From positions 104,100 through 168,099 of the IMG/VR virus record IMGVR_UViG_3300035212_002004: a stretch of 64,000 bases of DNA; one strand, given 5' to 3'. Within the stretch, counting starts at the first letter, position 1, and the number at the start of each line of letters is the position of its first letter. This document shows, piece by piece, positions 1 through 48,158 of this stretch. Source of the DNA: a virus (Duplodnaviria > Heunggongvirae > Uroviricota > Caudoviricetes). Both the position numbers and the translations under genes were made by a program. Under the pieces are notes generated by a model. The model ran no database searches, was not told the origin of the DNA, and was given only the letters and a program-made list of their open reading frames with translations.

Positions 1-1346
1 TGTTTCCAAACAAAAGTTCTTAATTCATCTAATAACCTTTTAGATTGTATTGTAACTGATTTTTCTTGTATATATGAAACTAATTTTGAAATACATAGTG
101 GGCGTGTTTTTTGAGAAGTTGTAAAACCCGGTATCATACCTTGCCCATTTTCCATTCTAGCTAATTGATTTTCATTAGCACCCATTGTTGTATCAGCTTT
201 AGAAGAGTAGTATAAATTTCTATATCCTCTTTCTATTAAATGTTCTAGAACACTCCATCCTATATTAGCATTTTCTACTACTAATAAAGCATCATTATAC
301 TCTGTTGCTATAGCAAATAAAATATTAGCGTAATCTTTTGTTTGAACTTGTGCTTTATATTCGGCTACTTGTTTAGCGGCTTCAATATCAAATATATGAA
401 AAGCTGAATAATCACTTCCATCACCTCTAGCGACGTCAGCTACAACCATATAAGTTTTTGTATAATCAGGTATTTCCCATATCCATAAAGCCCCTTCTAT
501 TCCTCTTCTTTCTATGGGATCAGATGTGAAAGCAGATTCTAAGAAATTAAGCATATCAGGCTCAATTACAGTGTCTCCAGATGTACTAAAATCACAATCA
601 CACTCTTGTGCGGCGTGACGTAATCCTAAAATTTCATTTTGGTCATCTCTCCATTGTTGATTTCGTTCAGGATGAACAGTCCAAGGTAAAGATAAAGGAA
701 CAAATTTATTTTCTTTATTTTGTGCTTTAGTAAAGGATTTATGAAACCAATTACCTGTACCATAAGGTGTAGATAAAGCAAGACATTGTCCTCCAGTAGC
801 TAAAGTTTGTTGTGCAGAAGCAAAAATTTCATCAATACCTTCAATAAAAGCTGCCTCATCAATAATAAGAAAAGAAACGGCTTCTGATCTACCCGCATCC
901 GCTGTTGCGCCTACTGCTTTAATCTGTGAACCGTTATTTAACTTTAATGAAAGTTTATTATTCTCTGATGGTTTATCTCCAGATTTTAACCATTTAGGTA
1001 AACTATCATAAGCAAAACGTACTTTAGTAACCATATTCTTAGCAGTTTCCTGCTTAGTAGCTATACATAAAATATTTTTGTCTTTATTAAATAACATTAA
1101 CCATAAAGCATAAGCTGATGCTAATGTTGATATACCTAATTGGCGGGATTTATTTATAATTGTATACTCATTCTTTTGTATTTGATATAGTACTTTTTCT
1201 TGGAATGGATATAAATTAAATTGGATTCTACCTCTTTGTGGATGCTGAATCCAATAATATTTCTTCATGAAGTACACCGGATCTTGAGCACATCTTACCC
1301 ATTCTTGTTTTATAATCTCTTTTAAAGGGAGTTGTTGTTCACTCAT
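1..1346 (-). CDS. terminase large subunit (T4 gp17-like), N-terminal ~448 codons; 3' end lies beyond window start
   Basis: Minus-strand ATG at 1346..1344 (MSEQQLPLKEIIKQEW...). Open frame runs to position 1. Translation contains YPFQ...KSRQLGIST Walker-A-like terminase ATPase motifs and DCDF...VIEPD nuclease-domain start. Confidence 0.8.
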   Translation of the reverse strand, partial: MSEQQLPLKEIIKQEWVRCAQDPVYFMKKYYWIQHPQRGRIQFNLYPFQEKVLYQIQKNEYTIINKSRQLGISTLASAYALWLMLFNKDKNILCIATKQETAKNMVTKVRFAYDSLPKWLKSGDKPSENNKLSLKLNNGSQIKAVGATADAGRSEAVSFLIIDEAAFIEGIDEIFASAQQTLATGGQCLALSTPYGTGNWFHKSFTKAQNKENKFVPLSLPWTVHPERNQQWRDDQNEILGLRHAAQECDCDFSTSGDTVIEPDMLNFLESAFTSDPIERRGIEGALWIWEIPDYTKTYMVVADVARGDGSDYSAFHIFDIEAAKQVAEYKAQVQTKDYANILFAIATEYNDALLVVENANIGWSVLEHLIERGYRNLYYSSKADTTMGANENQLARMENGQGMIPGFTTSQKTRPLCISKLVSYIQEKSVTIQSKRLLDELRTFVWK

Positions 1347-1977
1347 TTATTATATATTTGAATATGTAACCATGTTTTGTTTTTTTATAGTTTCCCTTTA
1401 AAACTTGACTAATAGTACTTTTATTTATATCCATTTCTTTAGAACATTCTGTTATACTATTAAAAATTTTTCCTGTATTAATACAAATTATAGGTTTAAA
1501 ATTGTTTATTATAGATTTGCCTTTCTTTAATTGAGAAATTACATTTCCAAATCCTTCAGGTTTAGGTTTACCTTGATTAGCTAAACGTTTTTTTTGTTTT
1601 GTTTCTTCACTTTGTGATTGTCCTTTAGGCCAACCATTTTTACCCATTCTACCTTGAGAAATATTTTGTTTAGTTTGTTCAGATCTAGGCCCTACTCCCT
1701 TATCAAATAAATCACTAAATAAGGCTTTACTCCATCCATACTTATTAACAAATTGTGTTTTATAAAAATTCTCTCTCTCATTAAGCAATTCTAAAGAACA
1801 TTCTTCTAATATTTCAATTATATGGTTGTTAAATCCATGTTTATTTAATGAGTTAAAAATTTGCGGTTGCTGTTTACATTCTAATCTTTTATAAGATTGA
1901 AATCTATTATTTAAATTAATAGATTGCCCTATATAAACTTTATTTGTTGGTGATGTTATTTTATATATTCCTATCAT
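1339..1977 (-). CDS. GIY-YIG homing endonuclease (free-standing; NUMOD-like repeats in C-terminal half)
   Basis: MIGIYKITSPTNKVYIGQS = GIY-(x10)-YIG motif. Basic repeat-rich C-terminus. Stop TGA overlaps terminase ATG (ATGAGTGA). Confidence 0.85.
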   Translation of the reverse strand: MIGIYKITSPTNKVYIGQSINLNNRFQSYKRLECKQQPQIFNSLNKHGFNNHIIEILEECSLELLNERENFYKTQFVNKYGWSKALFSDLFDKGVGPRSEQTKQNISQGRMGKNGWPKGQSQSEETKQKKRLANQGKPKPEGFGNVISQLKKGKSIINNFKPIICINTGKIFNSITECSKEMDINKSTISQVLKGNYKKTKHGYIFKYIINE

Positions 1978-2023
1978 TAGCCGCCCCTGTCTATTTTATA
2001 ATAAATATATAAAGGAGATAAAA

Positions 2024-2042
2024 GCCTAACGAAAGGTTAGGC
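2024..2042 (-). terminator. stem-loop (GCCTAAC-gaaag-GTTAGGC) between duplicated terminase 5' fragment and HEG
   Basis: Perfect 7-bp inverted repeat followed on minus strand by a T-rich run. Confidence 0.5.
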
Positions 2043-2050
2043 ATTTTAAA

Positions 2051-2104
2051 CTATTCTTGTTTTATGATTTCCTTTAAGGGAAGTTGTTGTTGTATTTCAG
2101 ACAT
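2051..2104 (-). pseudogene. 17-codon ORF (MSEIQQQLPLKEIIKQE*) duplicating the N-terminus of the terminase large subunit
   Basis: Near-identical at nucleotide and protein level to terminase start at 1346. It flanks the inserted GIY-YIG gene. Confidence 0.6.
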
Positions 2105-2122
2105 AACTAATTTAGAAGTTTT

Positions 2123-2812
2123 TTATACTCCTAATCTTTTATTTAATTTATTAATTTGAGCAGTTAAGTCTTTTAGTTGAGGTAAAACTGAAGTATCTCC
2201 ACCTTTATAAACTTTAGCTATTTCCATTCTTTTAGCTTCAAGATCTTTTTTAGCATTAATCATTTCATCTTTACTTCTTGAATCTTTTTCAACTCCTTTA
2301 TCAATTGAAGTGTCATCAGTTGATGGTTCAGATTTAGCTGGTGTGATTTTAATTTTTTGTTCTCCTGGAGTTTTAGCAGCTTTAGGTGCTTTTGGTTCAG
2401 CAGCTGGTTTATTAGGATCTACTGGACGTCCTGTTCTTTGAGCTAATGGAGAAGATGAAGCTGCAATATATTGAGCTAAATCTTTTTCTAATACTTCTCT
2501 TGATTTTGGGTTATTCCAGGTAGCAATATCTTTGCCAGTTTCTTTAGCTAAAGCTTTATAATCAACTTCACCTGTTTTTTCTAAAGCATCTAATGTATTA
2601 TAGATAGCTGATCCTGGTCTGAATTTTTCTTTTTTAGCTGCAATTGCTGCTTTAGCTTCTGGGGAATCATCTGTTACTTTATAGAATGAAGCCATTTCAT
2701 CTAATACTTCGTTTTCTTCTAAATCATCTTCTTGTAAGTAAGAAGCGTCAAAATTTTCAGTTAAAAGAAAATTCTTTGCTTTCTTTAAATCAAAATCATT
2801 ATTAATGTTCAT
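2123..2812 (-). CDS. hypothetical Lys/Ala/Pro-rich protein; possible terminase small subunit by position only
   Basis: 229-aa ORF immediately upstream (in transcription order) of the terminase large subunit. Low-complexity KAPKAAK region. No recognisable motif. Confidence 0.4.
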   Translation of the reverse strand: MNINNDFDLKKAKNFLLTENFDASYLQEDDLEENEVLDEMASFYKVTDDSPEAKAAIAAKKEKFRPGSAIYNTLDALEKTGEVDYKALAKETGKDIATWNNPKSREVLEKDLAQYIAASSSPLAQRTGRPVDPNKPAAEPKAPKAAKTPGEQKIKITPAKSEPSTDDTSIDKGVEKDSRSKDEMINAKKDLEAKRMEIAKVYKGGDTSVLPQLKDLTAQINKLNKRLGV

Positions 2813-6251: not shown

Positions 6252-6290
6252 AACCTTTTTTTTTAATTAATAATATTTAAATATAAGTTT

Positions 6291-7394
6291 TTAAGATTTA
6301 AGAGCCAAACTAATTTCTGATAATATTAATGAATTAGGATCTATAGATAACATTATGTTGATTTTATCTTTAACATAATCCGTAATAATTTCTTTAGATT
6401 CTTCATTATTTTGATGAACTTTGTATAAACTTAAACTAAATTTTACCCAGTCTTCTTTAAAATTAATATTTTTAGTATTATAATATTTTATGATACTTTT
6501 AAAACTTCTATGGTTATTTATACTTTTACCACTACCCCAATTAAATTTATCTACATGTTTATTTAAAAGAAGTGCAATTTTAAGTGAATCTTTTTCAATG
6601 TTAACATTACTTAACATTTCTAATGCCATATTGATATTATCCTGATCTAAACTGTTAAACATGCTGTCTAATGTCTTTAGATAATCTTTATCTAATTCAA
6701 TTCCATCACTATTAAGTGTTTCTAGAATATCATCATCAAATGCTATTTTAACATTAGGATTTTTAAAAACATATTCTAATAAACTATAGGTATCAATTAA
6801 ACTTCCTCCCCAAGTTTCTTTACATTTGTAAAATTCTAATGAAGTTTGTTTAGATATAAATTCTTTAAGAGTAAAAGATATAGGATTATTTAAATAAAAA
6901 TCATTATGTATAAAAAGATGATCTTCATTTGTGAATTTCATACGATCTTTAGGGAGAAGACTATCCTTACGATTATTATAACCAGTTTTATCACTATCCG
7001 GAGTTATCTCTTTTAATAATTGATAATTTTCAGTAGTTTGATCAATTTTAAAATAACTTTCTAACGATAATTTTTTAATTTGTTTATATAATTCAGTTAT
7101 ATAACTTTTATTAACAATTATATTATCACATTGTTCAACTCTTGATGTTTTTTTACCATTAGTTGTTTCAAAATATTCTTTTAACTTATGTCTAGGGACA
7201 TTAGATAATTTTCCTGTATAAGTTTTTCCAGGTAAATTAACATTTTTAGGCTGATTAATTATATTGTCTAAGAAAGTTAAATAATTAGTTCTTTCTTGTT
7301 CTGTAAACATAATAATATCAGATGCCCCGTCCCAATAAGTGTAATGCAATTTATTATTTTGAGTTGTTAAAATAATAGAATTTGGATATAACAT
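6291..7394 (-). CDS. hypothetical Asn/Lys-rich protein embedded in MoxR/VWA module
   Basis: 367-aa ORF between VWA protein and AAA ATPase. Confidence 0.5.
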   Translation of the reverse strand: MLYPNSIILTTQNNKLHYTYWDGASDIIMFTEQERTNYLTFLDNIINQPKNVNLPGKTYTGKLSNVPRHKLKEYFETTNGKKTSRVEQCDNIIVNKSYITELYKQIKKLSLESYFKIDQTTENYQLLKEITPDSDKTGYNNRKDSLLPKDRMKFTNEDHLFIHNDFYLNNPISFTLKEFISKQTSLEFYKCKETWGGSLIDTYSLLEYVFKNPNVKIAFDDDILETLNSDGIELDKDYLKTLDSMFNSLDQDNINMALEMLSNVNIEKDSLKIALLLNKHVDKFNWGSGKSINNHRSFKSIIKYYNTKNINFKEDWVKFSLSLYKVHQNNEESKEIITDYVKDKINIMLSIDPNSLILSEISLALKS

Positions 7395-7465
7395 AACCTT
7401 TGTTTTTAATTAATAATACTTAAATATAAGAATAATAAAAGGGGAGGCCAAGCCTCCCCATATTT

Positions 7466-8641
7466 CTATTTCATTATAAACTCAACTAACGATTTGTCCA
7501 TCATCATAACTTTAAATTTAGATGGATTATTATTATAAACTGACTTTACCATGTTGTAACAAATGTCAGTTGTAAATACTTTTTCATTAACAATTTTAGA
7601 TAACCTTTCAGTTACTGTTTTTTCTATTGGATTTTCTTTAGAAAATAAATCTAAGAAATTGATTATTCTAGTTGATAAAGTTGATGCAATATCTGCTCTA
7701 TATTTATCTTCTTTACCTGTTAATGATTTTAAAGTATTTAATACATACTGTTCATCCTGACTCATTATATTTTCAGGCGAAATCATTTTATCTAATTTAT
7801 TATTAATAAACATAGTAAATAAACTACTAAATTCTGGTCCTACTGAACCTTCACCTACCATTTGTATAAGTGGTAATGAATCATTAAAATTAGAAATAGA
7901 AGATATTGAGTTAAAAAACATAGATATACTTCTACTGTTTATATCTTGTGTAACTAATTCTGGGTGCATTAATAAGAAGTTAATACATCTACCATCAATT
8001 TTATTTTCTTCAGCCCATTTAGCCCAACAATCAATATCAAATTTTAATTGTACTGAAATAAAACGTGTTTTTTGTGCGTTATCTATACTATTAACTAAAT
8101 AATCTCCGTTATCCGGGTTAGCAGTTAATATAATATGCCAATCTTTTGGTAAAGACCAACTAATATATTGTTGTCTATCAATAAGTTCCATCACGGCTTG
8201 TATAAACCTAATATCAGCTCTATTCCAGTCATCTAATAATAGAATCCCACCATTTGTTTTGTTAGCTATCCATTCAGGTGGACAATAACTCATTCTATTT
8301 TGACCAGTCGAACTATAACCTAGTTTAAGATACTCATCAAATGCATGTTCATCTACCCAAACTGTTTCTTTATCATCTTTTACTTCAAACTGACGAATTG
8401 GAAAACCTACTAAATCACCAATTTCTTCAATTTGAGCTAAATTTAACTTAACAAAATTTAAGTTTTGTTCTTTAGCTAATTGAATAATAGCAGATGTTTT
8501 ACCAATACCTGATTCACCTATTACTTCAGTTGATACAGGTGTTTTACCTTGACTTTGTAAAAATCGATTGTTCTCAATAATGTGAGATAAGAAAGTTTTT
8601 AATTCGGTTACATTAACCGATACTAGATTTTGTTTTGACAT
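7466..8641 (-). CDS. MoxR-like AAA+ ATPase (AAA_5)
   Basis: Walker A GESGIGKTS. Walker B LLLDDWNRAD. Size and arrangement typical of MoxR partners of VWA proteins. Confidence 0.75.
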   Translation of the reverse strand: MSKQNLVSVNVTELKTFLSHIIENNRFLQSQGKTPVSTEVIGESGIGKTSAIIQLAKEQNLNFVKLNLAQIEEIGDLVGFPIRQFEVKDDKETVWVDEHAFDEYLKLGYSSTGQNRMSYCPPEWIANKTNGGILLLDDWNRADIRFIQAVMELIDRQQYISWSLPKDWHIILTANPDNGDYLVNSIDNAQKTRFISVQLKFDIDCWAKWAEENKIDGRCINFLLMHPELVTQDINSRSISMFFNSISSISNFNDSLPLIQMVGEGSVGPEFSSLFTMFINNKLDKMISPENIMSQDEQYVLNTLKSLTGKEDKYRADIASTLSTRIINFLDLFSKENPIEKTVTERLSKIVNEKVFTTDICYNMVKSVYNNNPSKFKVMMMDKSLVEFIMK

Positions 8642-8676
8642 AACTTTTATTTATAAATTAATAATACTTAAATATA

Positions 8677-8988
8677 CTAAGGATAAGAGAAGAGGCCAAA
8701 CAAATCGTCTTGAAAGGCTAAATAAGCTTCTTGAACTTTTTTCCAAGCAGGCTGTTGTTTTAAATTAATATAAAAACTGCTTATATCTTTATGACTTTGA
8801 GTTGCTTTATTATTTATTATTAAAGTTAAAGACAATTCTTCTATATAATGACAAGTATATAAATCATCAGTATCTGAGTTTAATATAATTTCACAAGCTA
8901 AGCCTATATCATTTCCTTCTGTTGAATGTACCATATCAAGTAATTGTTGATACATTTCTTCATCTATTTTGTGAATTTTAGAATACAT
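8677..8988 (-). CDS. hypothetical protein
   Basis: 103-aa ORF. GGGAGGCcaaGCCTCCC hairpin downstream of previous gene. Confidence 0.5.
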   Translation of the reverse strand: MYSKIHKIDEEMYQQLLDMVHSTEGNDIGLACEIILNSDTDDLYTCHYIEELSLTLIINNKATQSHKDISSFYINLKQQPAWKKVQEAYLAFQDDLFGLFSYP

Positions 8989-13659: not shown

Positions 13660-14892
13660 TTACCAATATCCGCTAAAATTTGATCCCCCACCTAATGATT
13701 TCCAATACTTTCCAATATTACAAGACCAATATCCAGGAGTTGTTCTATCTTTTTTTCTATCACAATTTTGACGTGCAGCAAAAGCTCTTCTAGCTTTAGG
13801 ATCTCTAATTTTAACTGCTAAGTTTTGACCACCACCAGCTGCTCCAAATTGTACTTTTTTTACTTTATCTCCATCTTTAACATAAACAAAGAATTTTTTA
13901 GAACCACCACGTTTTGGTTTCCCAAGAGATACTTCTTTACCTTGATATTCAGCTTCATTTAAAGAGGGATTTAAAGCTTTTAATACATCTTTATATAATC
14001 TTTCATTTTCAGAAGCCCAGTTAGGAAATACTTCTTTATACTTTTCATAAAAAGCTTTAAATTTTTGAAGTTTAATAGGATCTAAATTAGTTTCATCTTG
14101 ATATTTTAAAATTTCATTTTGATCTATTGCAAATTCTATTTTTTTCTTGTTAGAATTAGCTAATTTATTAAAAATATTTTTATATATAGGTTCATTACTC
14201 ATCATAGAACCTGCGAATTTAATATAATCTACAAGACCCATTCTTTCCTTTCTTAAATCCTTCATCATAACCTCATGCTCTTCTTTATTTAAAGCATTGG
14301 TATCAGGTGAAAAAGAATGAGGAATGTAATTATATAAAGTAAAACCATGATATTCAGCTTCATCTAACGATTTACCCGCAATACTTTCATAGTTCGCCAT
14401 AGTCAATGTATCACCAGAGGTACTTAAAGCAAGCGCTTTTTCTGTTACATCATGTAAATCCATATCAGTTTTAGCATCTTCTCTAGCATATTCTAACATA
14501 CGGATAAATAAGGGAACATCCATAGTGATTTTATCAGTTGGATTAGTACCCTCTTCAACCATTGGTACATCTAAAGCCACAAATTGACCTTCAAATAGAC
14601 CATAATTTCCAATATCTGTATTCTCAATTAACCATCTATCCTCAGGATTTAAGTATAATTTTTCTTCATTATAAAGTTTTCTTACTTCTTTAAATAAAGA
14701 TAATTGAGCTTCAGTACCATATCTAAAAGCATTCTCATGTAATGGGATTTCTTTATCTAAATGGTATTGAAGATTTTTAGAGACTTTATCTTCGGTTAAT
14801 AAAATATTCTCTTGAAGAGATGATACATTACTTTCTTGAAAGATATGTTCTATAGTTTCTCTAATTATATTTCTTAAATCTGATTTATCCAT
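13660..14892 (-). CDS. hypothetical protein with basic Gly-rich C-terminus
   Basis: 410-aa ORF. Confidence 0.55.
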   Translation of the reverse strand: MDKSDLRNIIRETIEHIFQESNVSSLQENILLTEDKVSKNLQYHLDKEIPLHENAFRYGTEAQLSLFKEVRKLYNEEKLYLNPEDRWLIENTDIGNYGLFEGQFVALDVPMVEEGTNPTDKITMDVPLFIRMLEYAREDAKTDMDLHDVTEKALALSTSGDTLTMANYESIAGKSLDEAEYHGFTLYNYIPHSFSPDTNALNKEEHEVMMKDLRKERMGLVDYIKFAGSMMSNEPIYKNIFNKLANSNKKKIEFAIDQNEILKYQDETNLDPIKLQKFKAFYEKYKEVFPNWASENERLYKDVLKALNPSLNEAEYQGKEVSLGKPKRGGSKKFFVYVKDGDKVKKVQFGAAGGGQNLAVKIRDPKARRAFAARQNCDRKKDRTTPGYWSCNIGKYWKSLGGGSNFSGYW

Positions 14893-15006: not shown

Positions 15007-16515
15007 TTAATTAAACATATTCATAAAATTCTTAGCAGCTTGTTCAGATTTGAATCCTTTCTTAGTAAGATTTTCTCTTTTTTTAGTATCATGGTTAATT
15101 GCAGAATACTTTAAAGTCCAAGTGCCATCTTTTTCTTGAGAAACACCTTCTTCTTTAGTATCTTCTTGAGATTCTCTGCTTTTAACTTCTTCTAAATTAT
15201 CAGCATATTTATTTAATTTGTCTTTAGCATAATCAGCTGCTTGACCTAATTTTCCTTTTACTTTATCTTTTAAAGCCATATAAACAGCTTTTAAAGCTTG
15301 ATCTTGTTCAATATCATCTTCTTTATCTAAAGCAGCTTGGAAAGCATCTAGAATATCATCCATTGAAGTTTCTCCTTCACCTTCTTTTAAATGTTTAGTA
15401 GCAATTGCAAAAGCCTCTCCTTTATCCATTTTAGGATTTTTCTTTTTAATAACTTCTGCTTCTTTATTTCTTTTTTTAAGTTGAGCAGGAGTTAATTTTT
15501 TTTCTAAAAGAACTTCCTTAATCATAGAAGTTAATTGGGATTTTAATTGGTCTTTCATTGTATTTTTATTTTCGTAGAGGTTGTTGTATTTTTCTTGAAA
15601 TTTAATTGAAGCGTTAATTAAAGCTTTTTTATCAGATGTTGATATATCACTTACTGTGACTTTACCGTTTTCAACTTTAGTTTTAAATTTAAATTCATCT
15701 GGTATTAATTTTCTGAATTTAGCTGCTAGTTTTTCATCAGGTTCACCTTCATCATCTATAAATGTTTTAACAAAATTTATTTGATCAGGTCTATCAGGTG
15801 AAGTAACACTAGTTGCTTTTTCTTTAGGTTGTTCTGTTGATTCTTGTTCAGAAAAAACATATTCAAGTCCTGCATTATCCATTATAAGTTTTAATACTTT
15901 TTTAAGATAATCTTTGGATTTGAATGGATTCCAATTTTGAGGAAATGTTAATTCATCTTCATCAGCAGTATAATGAATACCTTTAGACATCACACCACTG
16001 TATTTTTTAAGATTTTCAGGTGTTTTAGTTAAAAAGAAATTAGCACCATACTTACCGTAAAAATTCATAGGCAATTTATCTCCAGGAAGTGATACTAAAA
16101 AATCAATAAAGTCGCCTTTATTTTCTTCAGACCAAGTTTGGAATTGAGGTTGTAGTTGAGTTTCAACTGAAGTGAAATCTTGCGATGCTCTAGATTTAAT
16201 ATCTAATACTTTGGCACGTTTTTCAGCTTCTGAAAATTTATTCCAAGTTTCTTTGGCTATTCTACCTTTAGTGGCTGGAGTGTTAGGCCCGAATACTTTT
16301 TCAATAGTTTTAGGATCTCTTAAATTTTGAGCATACACTCCATAATTTTTAACATTAGATAAGGCTGCGATAGCCTTATTAACATCTTCAGGGATCAATA
16401 CTACATCATACTCAGCGTATTTTTTAGTTTGATCATCTTCACCATCTTCAAGTTCCTCTTTAATAAAGGTATAAAGATGTTTAGATAAGATTTCAGTATA
16501 TTTACTATTCGTCAT
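15007..16515 (-). CDS. hypothetical charged protein (Lys/Glu-rich, coiled-coil-like C-terminus)
   Basis: 502-aa ORF. Confidence 0.55.
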   Translation of the reverse strand: MTNSKYTEILSKHLYTFIKEELEDGEDDQTKKYAEYDVVLIPEDVNKAIAALSNVKNYGVYAQNLRDPKTIEKVFGPNTPATKGRIAKETWNKFSEAEKRAKVLDIKSRASQDFTSVETQLQPQFQTWSEENKGDFIDFLVSLPGDKLPMNFYGKYGANFFLTKTPENLKKYSGVMSKGIHYTADEDELTFPQNWNPFKSKDYLKKVLKLIMDNAGLEYVFSEQESTEQPKEKATSVTSPDRPDQINFVKTFIDDEGEPDEKLAAKFRKLIPDEFKFKTKVENGKVTVSDISTSDKKALINASIKFQEKYNNLYENKNTMKDQLKSQLTSMIKEVLLEKKLTPAQLKKRNKEAEVIKKKNPKMDKGEAFAIATKHLKEGEGETSMDDILDAFQAALDKEDDIEQDQALKAVYMALKDKVKGKLGQAADYAKDKLNKYADNLEEVKSRESQEDTKEEGVSQEKDGTWTLKYSAINHDTKKRENLTKKGFKSEQAAKNFMNMFN

Positions 16516-22991: not shown

Positions 22992-25100
22992 TTAAATTGG
23001 TTCTTGTTCACATTGTGAACCACTGTAAATATAAGTTCTACTATAAATATCAATACTTTGAGAAGGAGAAGTACAAGAACCACTATCAATTATAAATAAT
23101 GAGTATGAACCTGAATTTAATCCATCTAAAGTTACAGTTGTTGTATCAGATGAGTATACAGCTAATGTATTTAAATTTCTAGCAAAATAAGTATAAGGTG
23201 GAAGTCCTCCTGCAGCATTAAGTATTACAGCATTAGAACAAGAATTTATGTAAGAAGCTGTTGATGTAAATGTTATTTGTGTTGGACTTGTTAAAGTAAT
23301 AACATTTGAGTAAGATTGACATTCATATGGGTCAATATTTACTAAACTTAAATTATAACTACCTGTATGTAAATTAGAGGCAGTAATAGTATTATTTGTA
23401 AATGAACTTAATGGAACATTAGAATAAATAGCACTTGATGTTGGGTCTAATAAAGTAACATATAAATTATCTACCACATTTGTAAAGGTTACAGATATAG
23501 TTCCATTTGAACCTCCATAACAACCTATATTGGATTGTACCACACTTGCAGTTAATTGAGTATATGGAGTTAAAATAACAGTTGAACTTGTAATACAATT
23601 ATTAATATCTCTTACTAAGATGTTATATGAACCTGTACCTAAAGATGTATAAGTATTTGGAATGCTATTCCATCCAGTATTATTAATATTTACTGATGTT
23701 CCTGTTTGGTTGGATGGTGCTTCTATTATTATTATACCATCAGTACTAGTAGTAGAACATGGGTTTTTCCCAATAGTAGTAGTATAAGTTACAGGAGGAG
23801 AAAAAGATGAGAATGATTGAGTTACAACATTTCCTAGATAATCTTTAACATATATAATATTATTACTAGATGGTAATACACTACCACTAATTGTTACATT
23901 AAATAAGCTATTTGAACCTGTATAACTAACCCCATTATCTAAAGAGTAACTATAGTAAGGTACTCCATAATTAATAGAAAAAGTCACAGGTAAATTAGAA
24001 GTAGTTCCCCCACAGTTTGAAGAACTTATAATATTAGTAATTTGTAAGGGTTCAGAAGTAATTGTTAAATTAATTGAACTAGTATTACTAATCAAACCAG
24101 ATGAATTAGAAATTGTATATCCTATTTTATATGTTCCTGGTATTACACTAGATTGATTTGGGGTTATATTTATAAATCCATTATTATAGGTAAAATCCGG
24201 AAAAGAGTACCCTGATGTAGAGGATGAATTAAAAGTATTAAAAACTATATTTCCACAATCCGCATAATCATTAGCTATAATATCAAATGTTTGGGGTGTA
24301 TCTAAATTAAAATATGAAAAATAATCATTAGTAGTTGTTGGAGGTGCACCAAAAACACATAAATACTTCCCATTAGTTATTACTATTAATCCATGTGAAT
24401 AAAATACATTTCCTACATACTCTAATTGGGGAGGATTAGAATTTATTAATTCTAAATAAGCATCAGGGTTATAAATAGTTGAACTATATATTACATAATT
24501 TGCTTCAGTTTGATAATTATATAAATTACCTTCACCATCATCTCTTAGATAATATCCTGAGCCTGAAATATGAACAGTGTTTGGGGTTAAACCTGATCCC
24601 ATTATTTTTCTATCAACAGATATTACTGCAATTTTTCCTATTTTACTAGGATCAAAGGTAGTTTCATCATATAAACTTGAAGATACATCATATAATACTT
24701 CATCATAGGCTGAGAAATTATTGGGATTTGAAATACTACCTGTAATTGTAGATAAATTTCTAAATGTTGATATTCCAGAGCCTGAAGCTAGTGTAGATTG
24801 TTCGTAGTTAAAATATGAAGATGAATTAAAAAATTTACCTGTAAGCGAACCAGAGGTATAATTTTCATAATATAAATGCTTAATGGATTCAAAGATTAAC
24901 CTTCTTGATTCTTGATTAGATGTTTTTATATCATTTATAGGATCATAAAGAGAGGTTCTATTTACAGGTATATTTTCACCTATAAAGATATTTATACCAT
25001 TTTGAGATAATGTAGCATTGGTAACCTCCCATGGCTTATTAGCAATATAGGAGGTTAATGTTATATCATTTGAATTTAATGTTTTGTATGAAAAACTCAT
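22992..25100 (-). CDS. tail fibre-like protein (Ser/Thr/Asn-rich, 702 aa)
   Basis: Compositional bias typical of phage fibres. Sits in the structural cluster. Confidence 0.55.
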   Translation of the reverse strand: MSFSYKTLNSNDITLTSYIANKPWEVTNATLSQNGINIFIGENIPVNRTSLYDPINDIKTSNQESRRLIFESIKHLYYENYTSGSLTGKFFNSSSYFNYEQSTLASGSGISTFRNLSTITGSISNPNNFSAYDEVLYDVSSSLYDETTFDPSKIGKIAVISVDRKIMGSGLTPNTVHISGSGYYLRDDGEGNLYNYQTEANYVIYSSTIYNPDAYLELINSNPPQLEYVGNVFYSHGLIVITNGKYLCVFGAPPTTTNDYFSYFNLDTPQTFDIIANDYADCGNIVFNTFNSSSTSGYSFPDFTYNNGFINITPNQSSVIPGTYKIGYTISNSSGLISNTSSINLTITSEPLQITNIISSSNCGGTTSNLPVTFSINYGVPYYSYSLDNGVSYTGSNSLFNVTISGSVLPSSNNIIYVKDYLGNVVTQSFSSFSPPVTYTTTIGKNPCSTTSTDGIIIIEAPSNQTGTSVNINNTGWNSIPNTYTSLGTGSYNILVRDINNCITSSTVILTPYTQLTASVVQSNIGCYGGSNGTISVTFTNVVDNLYVTLLDPTSSAIYSNVPLSSFTNNTITASNLHTGSYNLSLVNIDPYECQSYSNVITLTSPTQITFTSTASYINSCSNAVILNAAGGLPPYTYFARNLNTLAVYSSDTTTVTLDGLNSGSYSLFIIDSGSCTSPSQSIDIYSRTYIYSGSQCEQEPI

Positions 25101-27760: not shown

Positions 27761-30700
27761 TTAAATTAAATTTTGAGATTTTAAATTTTTAATTATATTA
27801 CCTGCTTCGTCTTTTAAAGTTTTAGATATATCTTCTGTAAACAATATTCCGGCTGATGTTTGACCTTCTCTTTTATTTGCTATTATAACAACATTAGTTT
27901 CATCTGGTATTTTAGATAATATGATAAAATTCATAATATGAGCATTTGATCCTGAAGTGTTGCATGCTTGGTTAGGGATACTACCATCAATGCTAGATTT
28001 ATCTTCAAGTACTTCAAATACTAATCTATTTTCATATGAACCCGTTCCATTAGATCCGGAACCTATAATTTGACCTTGTGGAGGAATGATATTAATAATT
28101 TCTCTCTCAAAAGTAGTGGAAAATGGAAATTTTAAACTATCATGATTATAAAATCTAATTAAATCTCCTTTTTTGGGATTAAAATATTCTGTTATTGGTT
28201 GATAACCTTCAGCTACAATCGAAGAAGTAAGTACTTGTATTAAATTATTTCCATAATAATTCCCCCCAGGAACATAATGATCAAAATATAATTTTGATAA
28301 ATTGTAAGAAGCAGTCATTAATGTGGATACACTACCACTTTCAACTTTATTCCCTCTTTCAAAATACCAGTTAAGGTTAGTTCCTGAACCTGAATTATAT
28401 CCATTATCAGATGAACCTGTAAGATATATTAAAGCTGGTGCTTGGTTATTATAATAAGGATTACCAATAGTAAGTGGGTCTATTTCATAAATTGGGGTGG
28501 TTGTAAGTTGAATTTGTGGACTACTTGGAGTTTTATTAAAATTAAAAATAGTTTTTAAATTACCTACAATATTATCTAAGGTTTTTAATTGAACAGGAGT
28601 AACTTGACCTTGTGACCCTGGTTCTAATACTATTAACCCTTCAAATGGGTAAATAGCTTCTATTGTTAATCCATTTACTTCTAATATAGGGTAAGTACCA
28701 GAACCTGTATCAAAAGAAACTAAATTACCTGATGATTGGAATGAGTTTTGGATGTAGGTAGGAGAAAATGAAGCCGTAGTATTATTTACAACATATCTAA
28801 CATAATCTATTCCATTATAGGGTGAATAAGCATTTGGTACATTTTGTATAGTTTCATTTCCTACTAATGTAGAAGTAAGTTCATATGGGTATCTATTGTA
28901 AAAATACCCTGTAGTTCCTATGGGTGATTTAGCTTTTTTAATATTATCCCATGCTATAGGTTGAGGTTGAAAATCTCTAGTATCAGTAACTCCAAATGGT
29001 ATATTTTGACTTCCAAGTAAAGTATTAGTATTAGTATAAAAATTAACAATAAGATTTGTTGGAGGAGAAATTTTTACAGTTACTGTTATACTTCCTGTTA
29101 CTCTTTGAGTTATTTTCCCGGTATAAGGTGTATTTCTGGTTACAGGAAATGTAATTCCTGAGTCTAAGTTAATTTGAATATAATCGTTAAGTGTATTTAT
29201 ACTAGTATTAAACCCTATAGTGTTAGTTAAAGTTGGTGAGCCTAATATTATACCACCAGATATTGGTAAATTTACCATACTTCCAGTATTAGGGTTTGGA
29301 ATAGAAATATCATCAGTATAAAGAAAATCTATTGTTTTATGACCAGAGGTATTAGTTGAAAAATTCTGTAGTATAGGTTCATATCTAAATCCCCCAGCAT
29401 AAATTGGTTTTAACCCATTTAATGCTTTTTGTTTTGATGGTTGGTTAATATTTTCTAAAGCTATATTGGCATTAGTTCTATTAAATATATCTTGAACATC
29501 AAATAAATTTTTATTAGCTTCTGTTAACTCAATTACATTAGAGGCACTATTTATTAAGTATTTTATATTAATATTACTTCTTCCATTTAATGTTAAGGAT
29601 TGTGAAGTTATCTCATTAAAATAAGCAAATTGGACGGGATTAATGTTTATAACAGGATCCTTACCATAGGATTTATCTCCTACAGTGTAAGTATTATAAG
29701 CAGCTCCTGTTAATTTACTACCATTATATCTTGGAGTTATATGTCTTGCTAAGGTATAATTACTATCTTGAACTGTAGCATTTAAAAAAGGATAATTTGA
29801 ACTACTTAAATTAGAAAATAAACTTGCAGTTAAAAAATTAAAATTAACTGGGGTTATAGGGTTATAGGCATAATCTATATCTATATGTTTAGGTGAAGTT
29901 CTTGCTAAATATACATTATTTAATGTTGGGTTTAAAGGTAATCTAGAAAAGTTTTTATTTATACCTTGCGAACCAGAAACCAACATATGATTTAATTCAT
30001 ATACAATATTTTCAGTTGTTGGAGTATAAGCTGTTATTATAGTTCCACCTAATTCTCCAGTAATTAATTCTCTTCTATCAGTATTTAATTTTGATATGCT
30101 TCCAGAAATGTATTGTGTAGTTGTTGTATTATCAGTATTAATATCCAGGTTTAAACCGTTAGAACCAGATATAAAAGCAGTATCAATAGACCCACTATAA
30201 TTTACAAAAGTTAATGTTGGTTCGTGGCGAGGTATTTTGTTTCTCTCCAACATATGAGATTTGATAACTAAACCAGTAGAAAGATTTGCTTTGGCAGGTA
30301 CAAAATCTTTAATCATTTTGAATAATGAGTTATCAAAATAAGATAAAAGTTTTATAATATCAAATATATTTTGTGAGTCAGAATACTTTTTAAAGTAAAA
30401 ATTTCTTAAATCATCTAAAGCCGGATATGAACTTGAAGTTACTAATCTTGGATCACCAATATAGTCATCAATATTAAATGTTCCTAATTGTGCAATTATA
30501 TCTTCATTAATTGAATCTTGAGGAGATATTGCTACTTCAACTATATTTAAGTCTGGTGTATAAGGAAATATTTCTGGTTTTTGTATTGAAATATAAGGTG
30601 TTAATACATCTCCAGGAACTAGATTTGGGGTTGCAATTCTTACTTTTTCATCTATTTCTGTGATAGTACCTATATTAGGAGTATTAACTAAAAAGGTTTC

Positions 30701-33373
30701 ATTATTAGTTTCATATGATGATGAAAGATAATTATTTAAAACTGCTTGGGATGAAGTTATAGAAGCACTTGTAAATGAAGAAGTATATGAAGGATGAACT
30801 GATGATAATGAAGAAGTTTTAGTATTATCTAATTCAGAACCCAAAGGTAATCTGAATATTAGATTATTATAAGAACTTGTTACTCCATTATAAACAATAG
30901 ATTGTGGATTTAAAATATGATCTTTAAAATCAACTGTTGGAATAGATCCTATCCAATATCTAAATTCTTGTATAGAACCTGAAAATGGATAATTAGTTGT
31001 TCCTCCTAAATAAAAAGTATTAAGAGAATTAAATACAGCATTACTTGATGTTAAGGTTCCAGTTATAAAAAGTGAACTAGAAGTTAAATATTGAATGCCA
31101 TTTGAGTCTTTATTCCCAACAGTTATAGTATAATATTGGTTTTGGGTTAAATCTGGGGTTACTAATGAATTTAAGGTACTTAATAAACTTGCAGTAGATT
31201 CAAAAGTTCCACCATCTGCTATTACTCGTGCTTGAAAATCGCTAATAAGTTGATTTATACTAGAAGAAGGAAATAAACTTAAACTACTTGATTGTTTAGT
31301 AATATTTAAATTCCACCAATCCTTATTATAGAAAGGTAAAGTAATTTGAGAAGAAGTTATAAAATTAGTTCCACTTCCTGATACTTTAAAGAATAAAGAA
31401 GCATATGAACTAGTACTTGGAGTTATACCTACACTTAATCTGTTATCTTGGGATTGTAAAAGAGATTGAGTTAATGAAGATGTATTATCAAATTTAAATC
31501 TAAATTCAAAAGTATCAGGATAAACATCGTCAAAACCTGTATCTAAATATTGTTTATAAGATGGTTGAAATGGTATAGCTAAACTAGCAGTATTATTTAG
31601 ATTTAAACTATAATTAAACTTTTCATTAAATTGTTCAATTATATCTTGATCTTTTTTATTACCACCATATTCTTTTACTTTTAAAATAGTTTCAGGAATA
31701 CCAAAACAGTTTATTAAAGCACGTAGACCTCTTCTTGTACCTTTAGTTTTAAGTAAATAAGGTAAGTTGTGGTAAATTCTTTTATAAGTTTCTTTTACTA
31801 TATCATTACTTGGTATAGTATATTGAGAAGCTGTTACATAATTATTAATTACATAAGAACCTGTTGAAGGTAAAGTTGAATTATCTGAGTTTATTCCTAA
31901 TAGGGAAAGATATAAGTCATCTTGATTTCTTGAATTAGTATAGAGCTTCATACCAAAATTTCTTAAGGTATCAGCTACTAAATCTTTTGAAATACCATGA
32001 TCAATACGGTTATCAGCTACTTGTAAATCTGTGATATCTTTAGTATAAGTCCAAATATAATCATAATGTTGACCAAGCATAGCAATAAATAATTCTAAAT
32101 TAGAATTTTGCGTGTCTTCTTTAATATATTCAGGTAAATTATTCCAAATATAATCTCTATTATCATTATCATAATTAAATGCATTAGATGATTGAGTAGT
32201 GAACCAATTTAAAGATGTAGATGAAGTTACATTATAATTAATGTAGGGTTTAGTAGTATTAGATTTAGGCCAACAATTAGAACCAGATTCATAATATAAA
32301 AAATATTCATACCCATCAAATTTTTGTATAAGATTATCTACTTGAGATTGTAAATTAAATATGCTAGATGTAATAAAATTAGTATTAACTGATGAAGTTA
32401 AATTATTAATATTATTAATATCAGTTTGTAAATTTTGTATTTGGGTTAATTTATATTTAAAATTTTCTAATCTTTCATTTGCAGAAGAGAAATGAACAAA
32501 ATTAGTAAAATCATTATAATCAACAGTTATTTCAATACTTTTTTCTTCTAACCAAGATTGTAATTGTTGATATGAAGAAGAAATATCTGAACTTAATAAA
32601 TTAGATAAATTTAAGTAAGGTGTTGTTAAGTTAGTTTTTTCTAATAATCCAATATTAATATTTGGTCCTCTTAATTGAGTACTATCTGCTATTTCTTCTG
32701 CTATAAATTCAGTATTTACTTGAAAAGAAAAAGATTCAGAGATACTTTCTACTATCCAAAAGGTGTCTTTTAGTTTAAAATTAGAAGGTAGGGGTTCATA
32801 TAATTTAATATATAAACTAGGTAGTGAAGTATTAATATTATCTAAAGCAACATTAACACCTATATAAGTTTTATTATCCCCAAAATTTAAAACAAAATCA
32901 GAATAAAAAGCTCTTGAATTTCTTTCAGCTATAAAATTTAAATATGATTGACCTAAATCAGTATATGACGTATTATTAGTAGATATTTTTATTTCAGTAC
33001 GATCTGAAGATATATCTGTGATGTAAAATTGGTTAGCTAATGAACTTGAAAATAACTCTCTATAAAAATTATAATTTATATCATATTGACCTTGGTTTAA
33101 ACCAAATGATTCTAAATCAGATTTAGGATCTAATTCGATTTGATTATATAAAGAACTATCTTGATATGTTTGCCTTGTAGTGTAATTTCTAAAATCATAA
33201 ACAGAATCTATTATATCCCCATTAGGTGATATAACATGTACTTCTACTTTATCTTGAGGTAAACCAAATTCTTTACTTATATTTAATGAATTTAATAAAG
33301 ATTCATCTTTAATAGTATAGTCTTGATTTATAAATTGAGTTGAGTCAATATTTGATATGTTGGTAATTTCCAT
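27761..33373 (-). CDS. giant 1870-aa virion protein (tail fibre / distal baseplate component)
   Basis: Uninterrupted 5.6-kb ORF in the baseplate/fibre cluster. Asn/Ser/Thr-rich. Confidence 0.6.
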   Translation of the reverse strand: MEITNISNIDSTQFINQDYTIKDESLLNSLNISKEFGLPQDKVEVHVISPNGDIIDSVYDFRNYTTRQTYQDSSLYNQIELDPKSDLESFGLNQGQYDINYNFYRELFSSSLANQFYITDISSDRTEIKISTNNTSYTDLGQSYLNFIAERNSRAFYSDFVLNFGDNKTYIGVNVALDNINTSLPSLYIKLYEPLPSNFKLKDTFWIVESISESFSFQVNTEFIAEEIADSTQLRGPNINIGLLEKTNLTTPYLNLSNLLSSDISSSYQQLQSWLEEKSIEITVDYNDFTNFVHFSSANERLENFKYKLTQIQNLQTDINNINNLTSSVNTNFITSSIFNLQSQVDNLIQKFDGYEYFLYYESGSNCWPKSNTTKPYINYNVTSSTSLNWFTTQSSNAFNYDNDNRDYIWNNLPEYIKEDTQNSNLELFIAMLGQHYDYIWTYTKDITDLQVADNRIDHGISKDLVADTLRNFGMKLYTNSRNQDDLYLSLLGINSDNSTLPSTGSYVINNYVTASQYTIPSNDIVKETYKRIYHNLPYLLKTKGTRRGLRALINCFGIPETILKVKEYGGNKKDQDIIEQFNEKFNYSLNLNNTASLAIPFQPSYKQYLDTGFDDVYPDTFEFRFKFDNTSSLTQSLLQSQDNRLSVGITPSTSSYASLFFKVSGSGTNFITSSQITLPFYNKDWWNLNITKQSSSLSLFPSSSINQLISDFQARVIADGGTFESTASLLSTLNSLVTPDLTQNQYYTITVGNKDSNGIQYLTSSSLFITGTLTSSNAVFNSLNTFYLGGTTNYPFSGSIQEFRYWIGSIPTVDFKDHILNPQSIVYNGVTSSYNNLIFRLPLGSELDNTKTSSLSSVHPSYTSSFTSASITSSQAVLNNYLSSSYETNNETFLVNTPNIGTITEIDEKVRIATPNLVPGDVLTPYISIQKPEIFPYTPDLNIVEVAISPQDSINEDIIAQLGTFNIDDYIGDPRLVTSSSYPALDDLRNFYFKKYSDSQNIFDIIKLLSYFDNSLFKMIKDFVPAKANLSTGLVIKSHMLERNKIPRHEPTLTFVNYSGSIDTAFISGSNGLNLDINTDNTTTTQYISGSISKLNTDRRELITGELGGTIITAYTPTTENIVYELNHMLVSGSQGINKNFSRLPLNPTLNNVYLARTSPKHIDIDYAYNPITPVNFNFLTASLFSNLSSSNYPFLNATVQDSNYTLARHITPRYNGSKLTGAAYNTYTVGDKSYGKDPVININPVQFAYFNEITSQSLTLNGRSNINIKYLINSASNVIELTEANKNLFDVQDIFNRTNANIALENINQPSKQKALNGLKPIYAGGFRYEPILQNFSTNTSGHKTIDFLYTDDISIPNPNTGSMVNLPISGGIILGSPTLTNTIGFNTSINTLNDYIQINLDSGITFPVTRNTPYTGKITQRVTGSITVTVKISPPTNLIVNFYTNTNTLLGSQNIPFGVTDTRDFQPQPIAWDNIKKAKSPIGTTGYFYNRYPYELTSTLVGNETIQNVPNAYSPYNGIDYVRYVVNNTTASFSPTYIQNSFQSSGNLVSFDTGSGTYPILEVNGLTIEAIYPFEGLIVLEPGSQGQVTPVQLKTLDNIVGNLKTIFNFNKTPSSPQIQLTTTPIYEIDPLTIGNPYYNNQAPALIYLTGSSDNGYNSGSGTNLNWYFERGNKVESGSVSTLMTASYNLSKLYFDHYVPGGNYYGNNLIQVLTSSIVAEGYQPITEYFNPKKGDLIRFYNHDSLKFPFSTTFEREIINIIPPQGQIIGSGSNGTGSYENRLVFEVLEDKSSIDGSIPNQACNTSGSNAHIMNFIILSKIPDETNVVIIANKREGQTSAGILFTEDISKTLKDEAGNIIKNLKSQNLI

Positions 33374-46921: not shown

Positions 46922-47199
46922 AACATTTTACTTTTTTAATTAAACTTAATTTTTTAACTTAATAACACTTAAATATACGAAATAATTTTTAATGAGCCAA
47001 GCCGTGTTTAAAAATCGTTTTTAATCATTTCATTTATTTTATGTCTTAACTCCCTTAACATTACACTTGTTAAAGTGGTTCTGTCAAATTGTGCTTCGTG
47101 TAGGTGGTTTATTAATTCCCTTATCACAATAAATTTTTCATTTACTAATTGATTTTCTTTAGCCATTTCTAACTCTGTCATAACATAATATTTTTAAAA

Positions 47200-47415
47200 T
47201 TATACTGAAATATACGAAATTATAATTGGATTGCCAAGCAATGTATATACTTTTTTATTAGTGAAAGGAACGGACTCATGACTGAACAAAAGTGCCCATA
47301 CCTGCCTTGGTAGTTCACCCGACCCATCTAGTGTTTCCACATGCGTCACCCCATTTTTCACCCCCATTACCCCTAATACACCTTCGGAATCCATATTAGA
47401 GGTGGGGATGTACAT
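47200..47415 (-). CDS. hypothetical protein (GC-elevated)
   Basis: 71-aa ORF. Confidence 0.4.
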   Translation of the reverse strand: MYIPTSNMDSEGVLGVMGVKNGVTHVETLDGSGELPRQVWALLFSHESVPFTNKKVYTLLGNPIIISYISV

Positions 47416-47576
47416 TATACAACCTTAGGTAATTTCACCTTATTCACCACTTTATCAATAGCATTTTTGATATCTAATACCTCGTCCACCATCATTTTAG
47501 TAGTGTCATACCCTAGTTTTTGTAACATTTCATCAATAATCATTACTTTATCTATCAACCCTAATTCTGTTTTCAT
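47415..47576 (-). CDS. small hypothetical protein (53 aa), not in ORF track
   Basis: ATG 47576 preceded by promoter box. Stop overlaps next ATG (TAATG). Confidence 0.45.
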   Translation of the reverse strand: MKTELGLIDKVMIIDEMLQKLGYDTTKMMVDEVLDIKNAIDKVVNKVKLPKVV

Positions 47577-47715
47577 AACACATATTATTTAACTTATTAA
47601 TACTTAAATATACGAATTATTATTTTACTCTCCTAACACACTCGTCGGGGAGTTATTTGTGTTTTGTCCCCGACGTCACTTGTGTTATCGCTGATATTAA
47701 TTTTCTTGTTTTGTA

Positions 47716-48015
47716 TTATGCAACTAACACTTTTGGTTCATTGAACCATATTATATCAACACTTCCTTCTCTCCAATTATCACTAATCATTACCCCATCT
47801 AATAGGTTATGTTCTTCATGGTTCATGTTATACCACTTCGAGATATAATTATATTTTTCTCCACATGCAAATCCTATTGGTTCACCCCCACACATACTCC
47901 CTATTCTATAACCCATTTCTCTCAATTGTTTCTCAGCTTCATAATGTGAACTAAATGTACCTTCTACTTTCACATTCACACTTTTAACTACTTCTCTACC
48001 TAAATACTTTTCCAT
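47716..48015 (-). CDS. hypothetical protein
   Basis: 99-aa ORF preceded by promoter box. Confidence 0.5.
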   Translation of the reverse strand: MEKYLGREVVKSVNVKVEGTFSSHYEAEKQLREMGYRIGSMCGGEPIGFACGEKYNYISKWYNMNHEEHNLLDGVMISDNWREGSVDIIWFNEPKVLVA

Positions 48016-48033
48016 AACATAATATTTTTTAAA

Positions 48034-48053: not shown

Positions 48054-48158
48054 TTAATTTTTAACAGTCCTAATATTAATCCATCAAAGCTATACAAGCT
48101 CCTAAACCTACTACAATTACTATACCTGCTATAAATCCTATTATCATAATATATGTTT

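Follow-up and report, generated by a model that had tools for sequence, protein, structure and literature searches.

The 64,000-nt stretch of the IMG/VR virus record IMGVR_UViG_3300035212_002004 analysed here (hereafter the window) comes from an uncultured immuto-like myovirus. At its beginning lies the gene of the large terminase, TerL, directly preceded by the gene of a GIY-YIG homing endonuclease (HEG); beyond the HEG stands a second, truncated copy of the first TerL codons, which we call the stub. In related phages the DNA between TerL and the gene upstream of it takes two forms, designated type A and type B junctions, and the window merges both. It is probable that a free-standing, Seg-like HEG cassette recombined into a backbone of type A and left the start of the resident TerL stranded behind it. 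The stub is, on this reading, the scar of a HEG block recombining into a genome with a different junction; the phenomenon is known, and the present locus is a clear example of it.

All genes at the TerL end of the window are on the minus strand and, read 5' to 3' on that strand, the order is upstream gene, type A spacer, stub, junction, 10-nt spacer, hairpin, AT-rich box, G-rich leader, HEG, the overlap ATGAGTGA and TerL. The functional TerL copy (1..1346, gp17/Terminase_6N type; Pfam match to Terminase_6N, E = 9e-11) starts at 1346 with ATG AGT GAA and encodes the N-terminus MSEQQLPLKEIIKQEW; its 3' part is cut by the window edge. The HEG (1339..1977, 212 amino acids) ends where TerL begins, its TGA stop overlapping the TerL ATG within ATGAGTGA (1339..1346). 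The stub is an open reading frame (ORF) of 17 codons plus a stop, MSEIQQQLPLKEIIKQE, at 2051..2104; over nucleotides 2104–2053 it is the opening 52 nt of a TerL allele of type A (MSEIQ-type), and since foreign sequence begins after T2053, the TAG stop was made by the junction. The first-pass annotation of this DNA had picked out the TerL start, the stub and the GIY-YIG gene between them, and all three are present on the minus strand as it described.

That the two copies are nearly the same, as was also noted then, is borne out by alignment: between 2104–2053 and the downstream copy, i.e. the first 46 nt of functional TerL (1301..1346), 39 of the 46 aligned positions match, with one 6-nt indel and a longest exact run of 13 nt. 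Over the codons for LPLKEIIKQE, all five differences between the copies are synonymous third-position changes. The local alignment of TerL nt 1–75 with the 1500 nt upstream scores 26.5, while dinucleotide shuffles score 10.6 ± 1.3 and none out of 1000 reaches 26.5; the same test applied to 80 HEG-less relatives gives a maximum of 13.5. The duplicated TerL start is thus far beyond chance. An assembly artefact is unlikely, because the arrangement was assembled independently in contigs L164 and L165 (two ENA samples) and in L169–171 (three JGI samples).

The nearest cultured phage is Flavobacterium phage immuto; its TerL shares 61% amino-acid identity and, at the N-terminus, is alignable with the downstream copy starting at residue 1. 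Many IMG/VR contigs are closer (TerL 87–97% amino-acid identity) and all of them are without this HEG, as the idea of an acquired gene had it. In 15 close contigs the junction is of type A: the stop of the upstream gene, about 20 nt ending in aaattagtt, then ATGTCTGAA, with no hairpin and box module (the succession aaattagtt ATGTCTGAA is found in L004-6, L022, L007, L011, L013, L016 and L018-21); L004-6 and L022 share the TerL N-terminus MSEIQ(Q/P)QLPLKEIIK. In six contigs it is of type B: a hairpin GCCTAAC-loop-GTTAGGC, a T-run, the box cTTTATATAtTTATAT, then ATGAGTGA. The stem, the box and the ATGAGTGA start recur in the HEG-less L078, whose TerL is only about 70% identical in amino acids, which suggests that type B is the older, native form; in immuto, a terminator and an AT-rich stretch likewise precede TerL. 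The stem persists under seven different loops, with a compensatory C-G to T-A change in L168 and L169-171. The hairpin had at first been taken as the HEG's own, an attribution that has to be given up, the same stem and box preceding TerL in HEG-less relatives as distant as L078. As a separate observation, the HEG-less type B contig L017 has, directly 5' of its hairpin (~2540-2600), two copies of the tandem direct repeat aataattttaagtaaaataaatatg.

In the window, the left part of the locus is of type A. The upstream gene (2123..2812, 229 amino acids, without Pfam or PHROG match) is the left flank of a type A backbone, and the junction spacer aaaaacttctaaattagtt (2105..2122) is the sequence found directly 5' of the TerL ATG in HEG-less type A relatives. 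What follows the stub resembles type B. The 10-nt spacer AGTTTAAAAT (2043..2052), from the junction to the hairpin, is similar to what type B relatives have 5' of their hairpin (in the junction alignments, L010 and L015 carry aaatttaaatta ahead of GCCTAAC). The hairpin GCCTAAC-ctttc-GTTAGGC followed by TTTT (2020..2042; the stem-loop itself spans 2042-2024) occurs once within the window, matches in the terminator scan and is a putative intrinsic terminator. The AT-rich box TTTATATATTTATTATAAAATA (1992..2013) is a putative promoter for HEG and TerL; it is identical at 22/22 nt across all HEG lineages, whose cassettes overall are 77–86% identical, and its 5' half is common to the HEG-less type B contigs and L078. 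The G-rich leader GACAGGGGCGGCTA (1978..1991), immediately 5' of the HEG ATG, is found only in HEG-bearing contigs, all lineages of which keep its GGGG. Compared with the HEG-less L006, the window gives two BLAST arms that overlap by 39 nt in the subject, the overlap being the duplication; compared with the type B contig L015, the hairpin tail and box match at 30/30 nt and the alignment picks up again just before the TerL ATG. By comparison with HEG-less type B, then, the insert falls between genes, in the interval from the conserved box to the TerL ATG, and not inside the terminase coding sequence as the first-pass annotation had supposed.

The stub matches the TerL starts of HEG-less type A contigs at 47-49/52 positions (L004, L022, L007, L020; 90–92%; L022 and L007 at 48-49/52), whereas it matches its own downstream copy at 39/46 with the 6-nt indel; the two copies thus come from two different alleles. 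A target-site duplication, proposed at first, does not account for such a pair, nor for the three HEG lineages out of five in which the repeat is missing; a transposon-style duplication is not what the locus displays. The functional TerL is itself a mosaic: in sliding comparisons, positions 1322-1233 are 88–92% identical to type B and 70–83% to type A, and from about 1200 onward the identity is 92–100% to the type A contigs L003 and L022. At informative sites the window follows type B at 7/8 (1296-1269), then type A at 44/45 (from 1210), with a Fisher p of 4e-7 at the best split, so that a recombination breakpoint lies between 1269 and 1210. A donor-type tract at 1296-1269 that gives way to backbone-type sequence by 1210 is the pattern that co-conversion of flanks would leave. 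The HEG-associated, type B form of the tract, gtaAGAtgtgctcaAgaT (1269..1301; gtcCGCtgtgcgcaGgaC in type A), is a synonymous recoding of W-V-R-C-A-Q-D-P, common to all HEG-bearing alleles and lacking in most type A alleles. Such a distribution is as expected for immunity, and the tract is a candidate target-site immunity region. In another comparison, the HEG-less type B contigs L009 and L034 have identical intergenic modules and differ at TerL nt ~50-80, where L009 has the type A-like CGC/CAG and L034 has AGA/CAA; hence, with no HEG present, there is still a recombination breakpoint at the TerL 5' end.

Five HEG lineages were found in metagenomes, with 97, 84, 84, 75 and 72% amino-acid identity, all at the same position and all with the hairpin and the identical 22-nt box upstream; a metagenome scan with the HEG protein added one close relative, L172. 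The overlap of the HEG stop with the TerL ATG, pointed out by the first-pass annotation for the window, is kept in every lineage under differing sequences (ATGAGTGA, ATGGATGA, ATGGATAA, ATGAATAA and ATGA), and translational coupling of HEG and TerL is plausible. Presence and absence of the HEG at this one locus are observed in two backbone clades. In the first, the window and L164/5 have the HEG and L003 and L022 lack it; in the second, L163, L166 and L172 have it, without a stub, and are nearest to the HEG-less type A contigs L019 and L021 (TerL 92.7–94%). The cassettes of the window and L165 are 100% identical from hairpin to ATG and 97.5% in the HEG, while their left flanks are only 75% identical, each being 92–93% identical to a different HEG-less contig (L022 for the window, L003 for L165). 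Likewise the last 140 nt of the window's upstream gene are 92% identical to HEG-less L022 and 75% to L165, which bears the same cassette. The left junction changes with the lineage: within the upstream gene in L163, right after its stop in L166, at TerL codon 18 in the window, L165 and L169. Near-identical cassettes in different backbones that have HEG-less siblings, together with the selection on the HEG described below, make the element look mobile and functional. Such a picture is what spread by recombination, with co-conversion of variable extent, leaves behind, as known from the T4 seg/mob genes (PMC2988022).

The stub occurs in two lineages only, that of the window with L164/165 and that of L169-171; in L163/L172, L166/167 and L168 it is missing and the upstream gene runs straight into the hairpin. 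A duplicated TerL start was sought by the local-alignment test in 80 HEG-less loci, six HEG-less type B contigs included, and found in none (0/80), the motif scan likewise giving none; the two-copy arrangement without HEG, which would have spoken against a homing event, is thus not seen among these relatives. A scan of IMG/VR for the stub-hairpin junction pattern gave six matches, all unrelated chance ones. In this sample the repeat is seen only with the HEG, yet three of the five HEG lineages have no stub: the duplication is linked to the HEG but the HEG does not require it. The three stubs are all MSEIQ-type and match each other at 47-49/52, whereas against the TerL start of the HEG-less sibling of their own backbone the counts are lower (L165/L003, 43/52; L169 with L011, L013 and L016, 44-46/52). 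That the stubs are nearer to each other than to the TerL start of their own backbone favours a stub travelling with the cassette as a part of its left homology arm. The L169-171 contigs have a peculiarity of their own (L169:~520-680): the upstream gene ends with AATGCCTAAC, and the left-arm 7-mer of the hairpin recurs 13 nt before the stub ATG, giving the layout GCCTAAC-13 nt-stub-TAAATA-GCCTAAT...ATTAGGC; this recurring 7-mer may be a microhomology footprint of the stub joining.

The first-pass annotation had suggested that the GIY-YIG ORF be sought among I-TevI/Seg families, and it does belong there. The protein matches TIGR01453 with 98.4 bits (cutoff 56.05) over residues 2-201 and model positions 2-208 of 215; Pfam recognizes GIY-YIG (PF01541, 29.6 bits for a cutoff of 22.6), NUMOD3 (residues 99-129) and an I-HmuI-NUMOD-like domain (170-207), and PHROG families annotated as homing endonuclease, including phrog_314, are matched. 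In a 17-sequence family alignment G3, I4, Y5, Y15, G17, R25 and E69 are invariant. A PDB search with the single HEG sequence gave no match, so that the family profile was needed; the profile finds the I-TevI catalytic domain (1MK0/1LN0, E = 1.7e-7), R25 aligning with R27 and E69 with E75. The AF2 model is predicted with pLDDT >90 for residues 1-90 and ~87 for residues 161-210, with a low-pLDDT linker between; its modelled fold resembles the I-TevI catalytic domain (1LN0/1MK0, TM 0.69-0.71) and, weakly, the DNA-binding region of I-HmuI (E = 0.011). The modular build of an N-terminal catalytic domain, a flexible linker and a C-terminal DNA-binding module (NUMOD/helix-turn-helix) is thus recovered, and by its profile matches the protein is assigned to the I-TevI/Seg-type (TIGR01453) GIY-YIG homing endonucleases, with predicted nuclease activity. 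In all 21 pairs of seven sequences the HEG dN/dS is 0.09-0.32, which indicates that the protein is maintained by purifying selection. No HEG paralogue was found within the window by phmmer at E <= 10. Rfam group I and II intron models gave nothing relevant at E <= 1 on 4 kb or at E <= 10 on the 900-nt insert, of which just 74 nt are non-coding; the HEG is therefore free-standing and Seg-like rather than an intron passenger.

The following course of events could account for these observations. In the donor, the HEG would occupy the gap between the native terminator-plus-promoter module of TerL (type B) and the TerL ATG. The recipient would be a type A backbone nearest to the HEG-less L022 and L003, which would gain a block of ~0.8 kb running from the 10-nt spacer through hairpin, box and HEG to nt 80-135 of the donor TerL, presumably in the repair of a double-strand break. 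The right junction would be homologous, within TerL 1269-1210, and produce the co-conversion tract; the left one would be non-homologous, after nt 52 of the resident type A TerL, stranding the first 17 codons and creating the stop. Once formed, the stub-bearing cassette might then have moved among type A backbones, with the upstream flank and the stub as left arm and TerL as right arm. The imported box would now drive TerL as part of a bicistronic HEG-TerL message, with termination-reinitiation probable at ATGAGTGA.

Several points weigh against this account. The whole case is built by comparing metagenomic contigs, of which many are short. Over its first ~45 nt (LPLKEIIKQEW) the functional TerL does not resemble the sampled type B contigs more than it does type A, the actual donor being outside the sample, and the HEG-less type B contigs could be HEG-loss derivatives rather than ancestral ones; inspection of their alignments showed no diagnostic HEG-loss scar. 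The HEG divergence between lineages roughly tracks that of TerL, so that much of the distribution could be vertical descent and loss, with only some transfers. As to expression, the box matches neither the sigma-70 consensus nor a promoter-like motif present in 29 copies in the window; a sigma-70 promoter scan gave fewer matches than in shuffles, with none at the box, and the leader as a whole shows no exceptional fold (z = -0.8). Finally, the stubs are too well conserved: the window and L169 stubs match at 47/52, for ~28/52 expected from the HEG dS of ~0.7 (P = 2e-8), and the functional TerL copies of the same two genomes match at only 34/46 over the same codons. A once-formed neutral pseudogene fails to explain this conservation. 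Selection on a homology arm, repeated gene conversion and repeated formation are possible causes of the excess. We advance, as a tentative idea that we hold for less likely than not to be right, that the stub is a maintained "portable homology arm" letting a HEG that evolved in type B home into type A genomes: selection on the selfish element would keep the stub target-like, and its 3' end would mark the cleavage position, within TerL codons 17-25.

The repeated formation just mentioned would mean that the stub is made afresh each time. The HEG cut in a type A TerL would fall at codon 17/18 or directly 3' of it, before the GC-rich GGGTCCGCTGTGCGCAGGA, and the left end would be joined by microhomology or end-joining wherever the recipient has no homology to the intergenic module, independently in MSEIQ-type recipients. 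The same junction nucleotide (...CAAGA(A/G)T) is indeed used in two HEG lineages that are 72% identical in amino acids and 77% in nucleotides, while the donor spacer kept differs between them (10 nt against 6 nt) and identity, 90% within the stub, is abruptly down to 74% once the junction is passed. Each stub is also as near to a HEG-less type A allele (48-49/52) as to the other stubs, the junction abuts the recoded segment that separates all HEG-bearing alleles from most type A ones, and a duplication driven by a GIY-YIG nuclease at microhomology has a precedent (PMC13096335). However, L165 and L169 bear MSEIQ-type stubs in backbones whose siblings are MPENQNPI and MSENQNPI (43-46/52), which fits a travelling stub better; the cleavage site of free-standing HEGs is often hundreds of bp away from where they are inserted (PMC2988022), and there are only two or three lineages to judge from. 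We hold this formation for unlikely. The stub might also have arisen independently of the HEG, a mere passenger in the type B parent, when phages of type A and type B recombined by illegitimate crossover. The TerL 5' end is mosaic even in HEG-less contigs, as in L009 and L034 with their shared intergenic region and different recoded segments, and other HEG-like ORFs nearby in relatives suggest that the region recombines often; but the stub is found in 2/5 HEG-bearing lineages against 0/80 HEG-less loci (the six of type B included), the IMG/VR junction scan yielded nothing, and a near-identical cassette occurs in different backbones, so that a passenger role is quite improbable.

The remaining readings give the stub or the HEG another role. 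If the stub served as an upstream ORF with a function of its own, ribosomes translating it as far as the hairpin (in the window) or into it (in L169) would modulate termination and thereby read-through into HEG and TerL. The type A translation start context is retained, the ORF is intact in all stub-bearing contigs and conserved above neutral expectation, and in the window 8 nt separate its stop from the hairpin, while in L169-171 the ORF reads into the 3' arm of the hairpin. Yet three HEG lineages and all HEG-less type B contigs manage without a stub, the stop position and C-terminal extension vary (TAG, TGA or seven more codons), a Pro that the other stubs conserve is replaced by His in L164, and synonymous sites are conserved too, which indicates a constraint on DNA and not on the peptide; such a function is very improbable. 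Even less credence goes to a domesticated nuclease that would aid the terminase in the manner of the HK97-type HNH protein rather than being a mobile element. Its place directly upstream of TerL, its co-expression and the purifying selection would suit such a role, and HNH-terminase cooperation is known (discussed in PMC10055350), but the gene is missing from the closest relatives in two clades (TerL 92–97% identical), hence not required for packaging, and its architecture is that of an I-TevI/Seg HEG. Least credible of all is a split terminase, in which the stub, as exon 1, would be joined by splicing to TerL codon 18 around an intron-encoded HEG like the small N-terminal terL exon of ICP1. 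A splice from the end of the stub to TGG (1301) would yield a flawless type A-like TerL, the overlooked small terL exon of ICP1 also adjoins a HEG (PMC10055350), and databases name this protein family "group I intron endonuclease". Against this stand the lack of any group I/II match at E <= 10 in the 900-nt insert (RF00028-type models included) with its 74 non-coding nt, a downstream copy with its own ATG and a complete N-terminus homologous to immuto TerL, three stub-less HEG lineages that must start at that ATG, and a hairpin and box that are ordinary intergenic sequence in HEG-less type B contigs. The recombination of a HEG cassette into a type A backbone thus appears to us the best account of the locus.

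Two ideas about the intergenic elements and one about the upstream gene were tried and rejected. An I-TevI-like operator or homing-site mimic in the G-rich leader, compared with TerL codons 14-21, gives its best alignments elsewhere; the shuffle p is 0.02-0.11 and 13.5% of random genomic 46-mers reach as high a score. A repeated PeSL-like mobile regulatory cassette is contradicted by a hairpin unique in the window, by a box whose three matches, for 1.4 expected, do not exceed chance, and by the 8-mer TTATATTT, which is not enriched (37 against 34). The 229-amino-acid upstream gene was considered as a small terminase, an identity for which neither Pfam nor PHROG gives a match; the gene (2123-2812, -) and its homologues in L009, L010 and L163 are at the place expected for a small terminase and have an N-terminal motif MN(I/F)N..FDLKKAK, also present in immuto gp076, while their length (229-342 amino acids) and C-terminus vary greatly among close relatives. 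Farther upstream in some relatives, between an AAA_28 kinase-like gene and the gene upstream of TerL, sit additional ORFs with matches below the curated cutoffs: one of 197 amino acids in L012 (2502-3095) and L017 (1126-1719), with weak HNH, NUMOD1 and I-HmuI-NUMOD matches, and one of 246 amino acids in L022 (1947-2687), with weak DUF723/DUF4379 zinc-finger matches. This suggests that the stretch upstream of TerL is a hotspot for several HEG families.

Elsewhere in the window, the 15-mer CGTATATTTAAGTAT, allowing two mismatches, is present in 29 copies for 0.83 expected, 26 of them in 46965-61971 and three in 6273-8678, all on the minus strand. The copies are always on the gene strand and 5' of small ORFs, with the consensus tTTCGTATATTTAAGTATwATTwwTTAAAAAA...GTT-ATG, and are often preceded by a GC-rich hairpin (e.g. 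49108-49032, 48773-48699 and 7465-7395). The motif is probably an early-promoter box of the phage and, by analogy, recalls the T4-type stem-loop-plus-promoter cassettes. An ORF of 1870 amino acids lies mid-window (27761-33373, -), and other large ORFs (13660-14892, 15007-16515, 22992-25100 and 34787-36664) have no Pfam match.

These contigs form a natural series—HEG-less and HEG-bearing siblings in two backbone clades, three left junctions and a mapped co-conversion breakpoint—which displays the likely route of a HEG cassette beside an essential packaging gene in uncultured aquatic phages. It leads to predictions: cleavage near TerL codons 17-25, immunity through synonymous recoding, and use of the stub as a homology arm. 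The portable homology arm, if true, would turn the speculation of Barth et al. on gene fragments into a quantifiable case. For annotation, two cautions can be drawn: tiny ORFs next to HEGs can be fragments of the neighbour gene, and proteins labelled "group I intron endonuclease" are often outside introns.

HEGs adjacent to terminases and accompanied by gene fragments have already been described, and what we report is no new kind of system. Among the nucleases compared, a terminase-associated accessory nuclease of the HK97 HNH type would be expected in all related phages, whereas the present HEG is missing from the closest ones. I-TevI, of the T4 td intron, is the best structural and profile match of the catalytic domain, with conserved GIY, YIG, Arg and Glu and a full-length TIGR01453 match; here, by contrast, the gene is not intron-encoded, so that the locus is not of the group I intron-encoded kind, the linker has NUMOD3 instead of a Cys4 zinc finger, and an operator mimic is unsupported. 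In phage T6, SegB causes nuclease-dependent local duplication with microhomology (PMC13096335), thus sharing with the window a free-standing GIY-YIG HEG and a local duplication at a microhomology junction; there, however, the whole tRNA-segB unit is amplified in tandem under selection by a defence system, whereas here a single 52-nt fragment of the flanking gene, from a different allele, is involved.

The seg/mob genes of T4 are free-standing and practise intronless homing with co-conversion (PMC2988022). With SegF, SegG and SegB the present HEG has in common the GIY-YIG domain and C-terminal DNA-binding module, the intergenic position between conserved genes with which it is transcribed, the presence/absence polymorphism and the co-converted tract in the adjacent essential gene (PMC2988022). 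It differs by its hosts—immuto-like, i.e. Flavobacterium-phage-like, myoviruses that are uncultured—by the overlap of its stop with the start of the downstream essential gene, and by the stranded fragment of the target gene that a subset of the cassettes carries. A further likeness is with the HEG-islands: HEGs cluster at terminases and fragments of essential genes adjoin them (Barth, Dunham & Seed 2023, PMC10448857), such fragments being proposed as recombination substrates (PMC10055350). In the islands as in the window, the HEG adjoins the terminase, a small neighbouring ORF is a fragment of the adjacent essential gene with nucleotide homology to it, and genetic exchange among related phages has one of its limits at the HEG (PMC10448857, PMC10055350). 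Barth et al. covered T5orf172 and IPA-HNH nucleases, while the HEG is here of the I-TevI-type GIY-YIG family and the phage group is different; moreover, the HEG-less siblings allow the allelic origin of the fragment, both junctions and the co-conversion breakpoint to be mapped within a few nucleotides, and the excess conservation of the fragment to be quantified.

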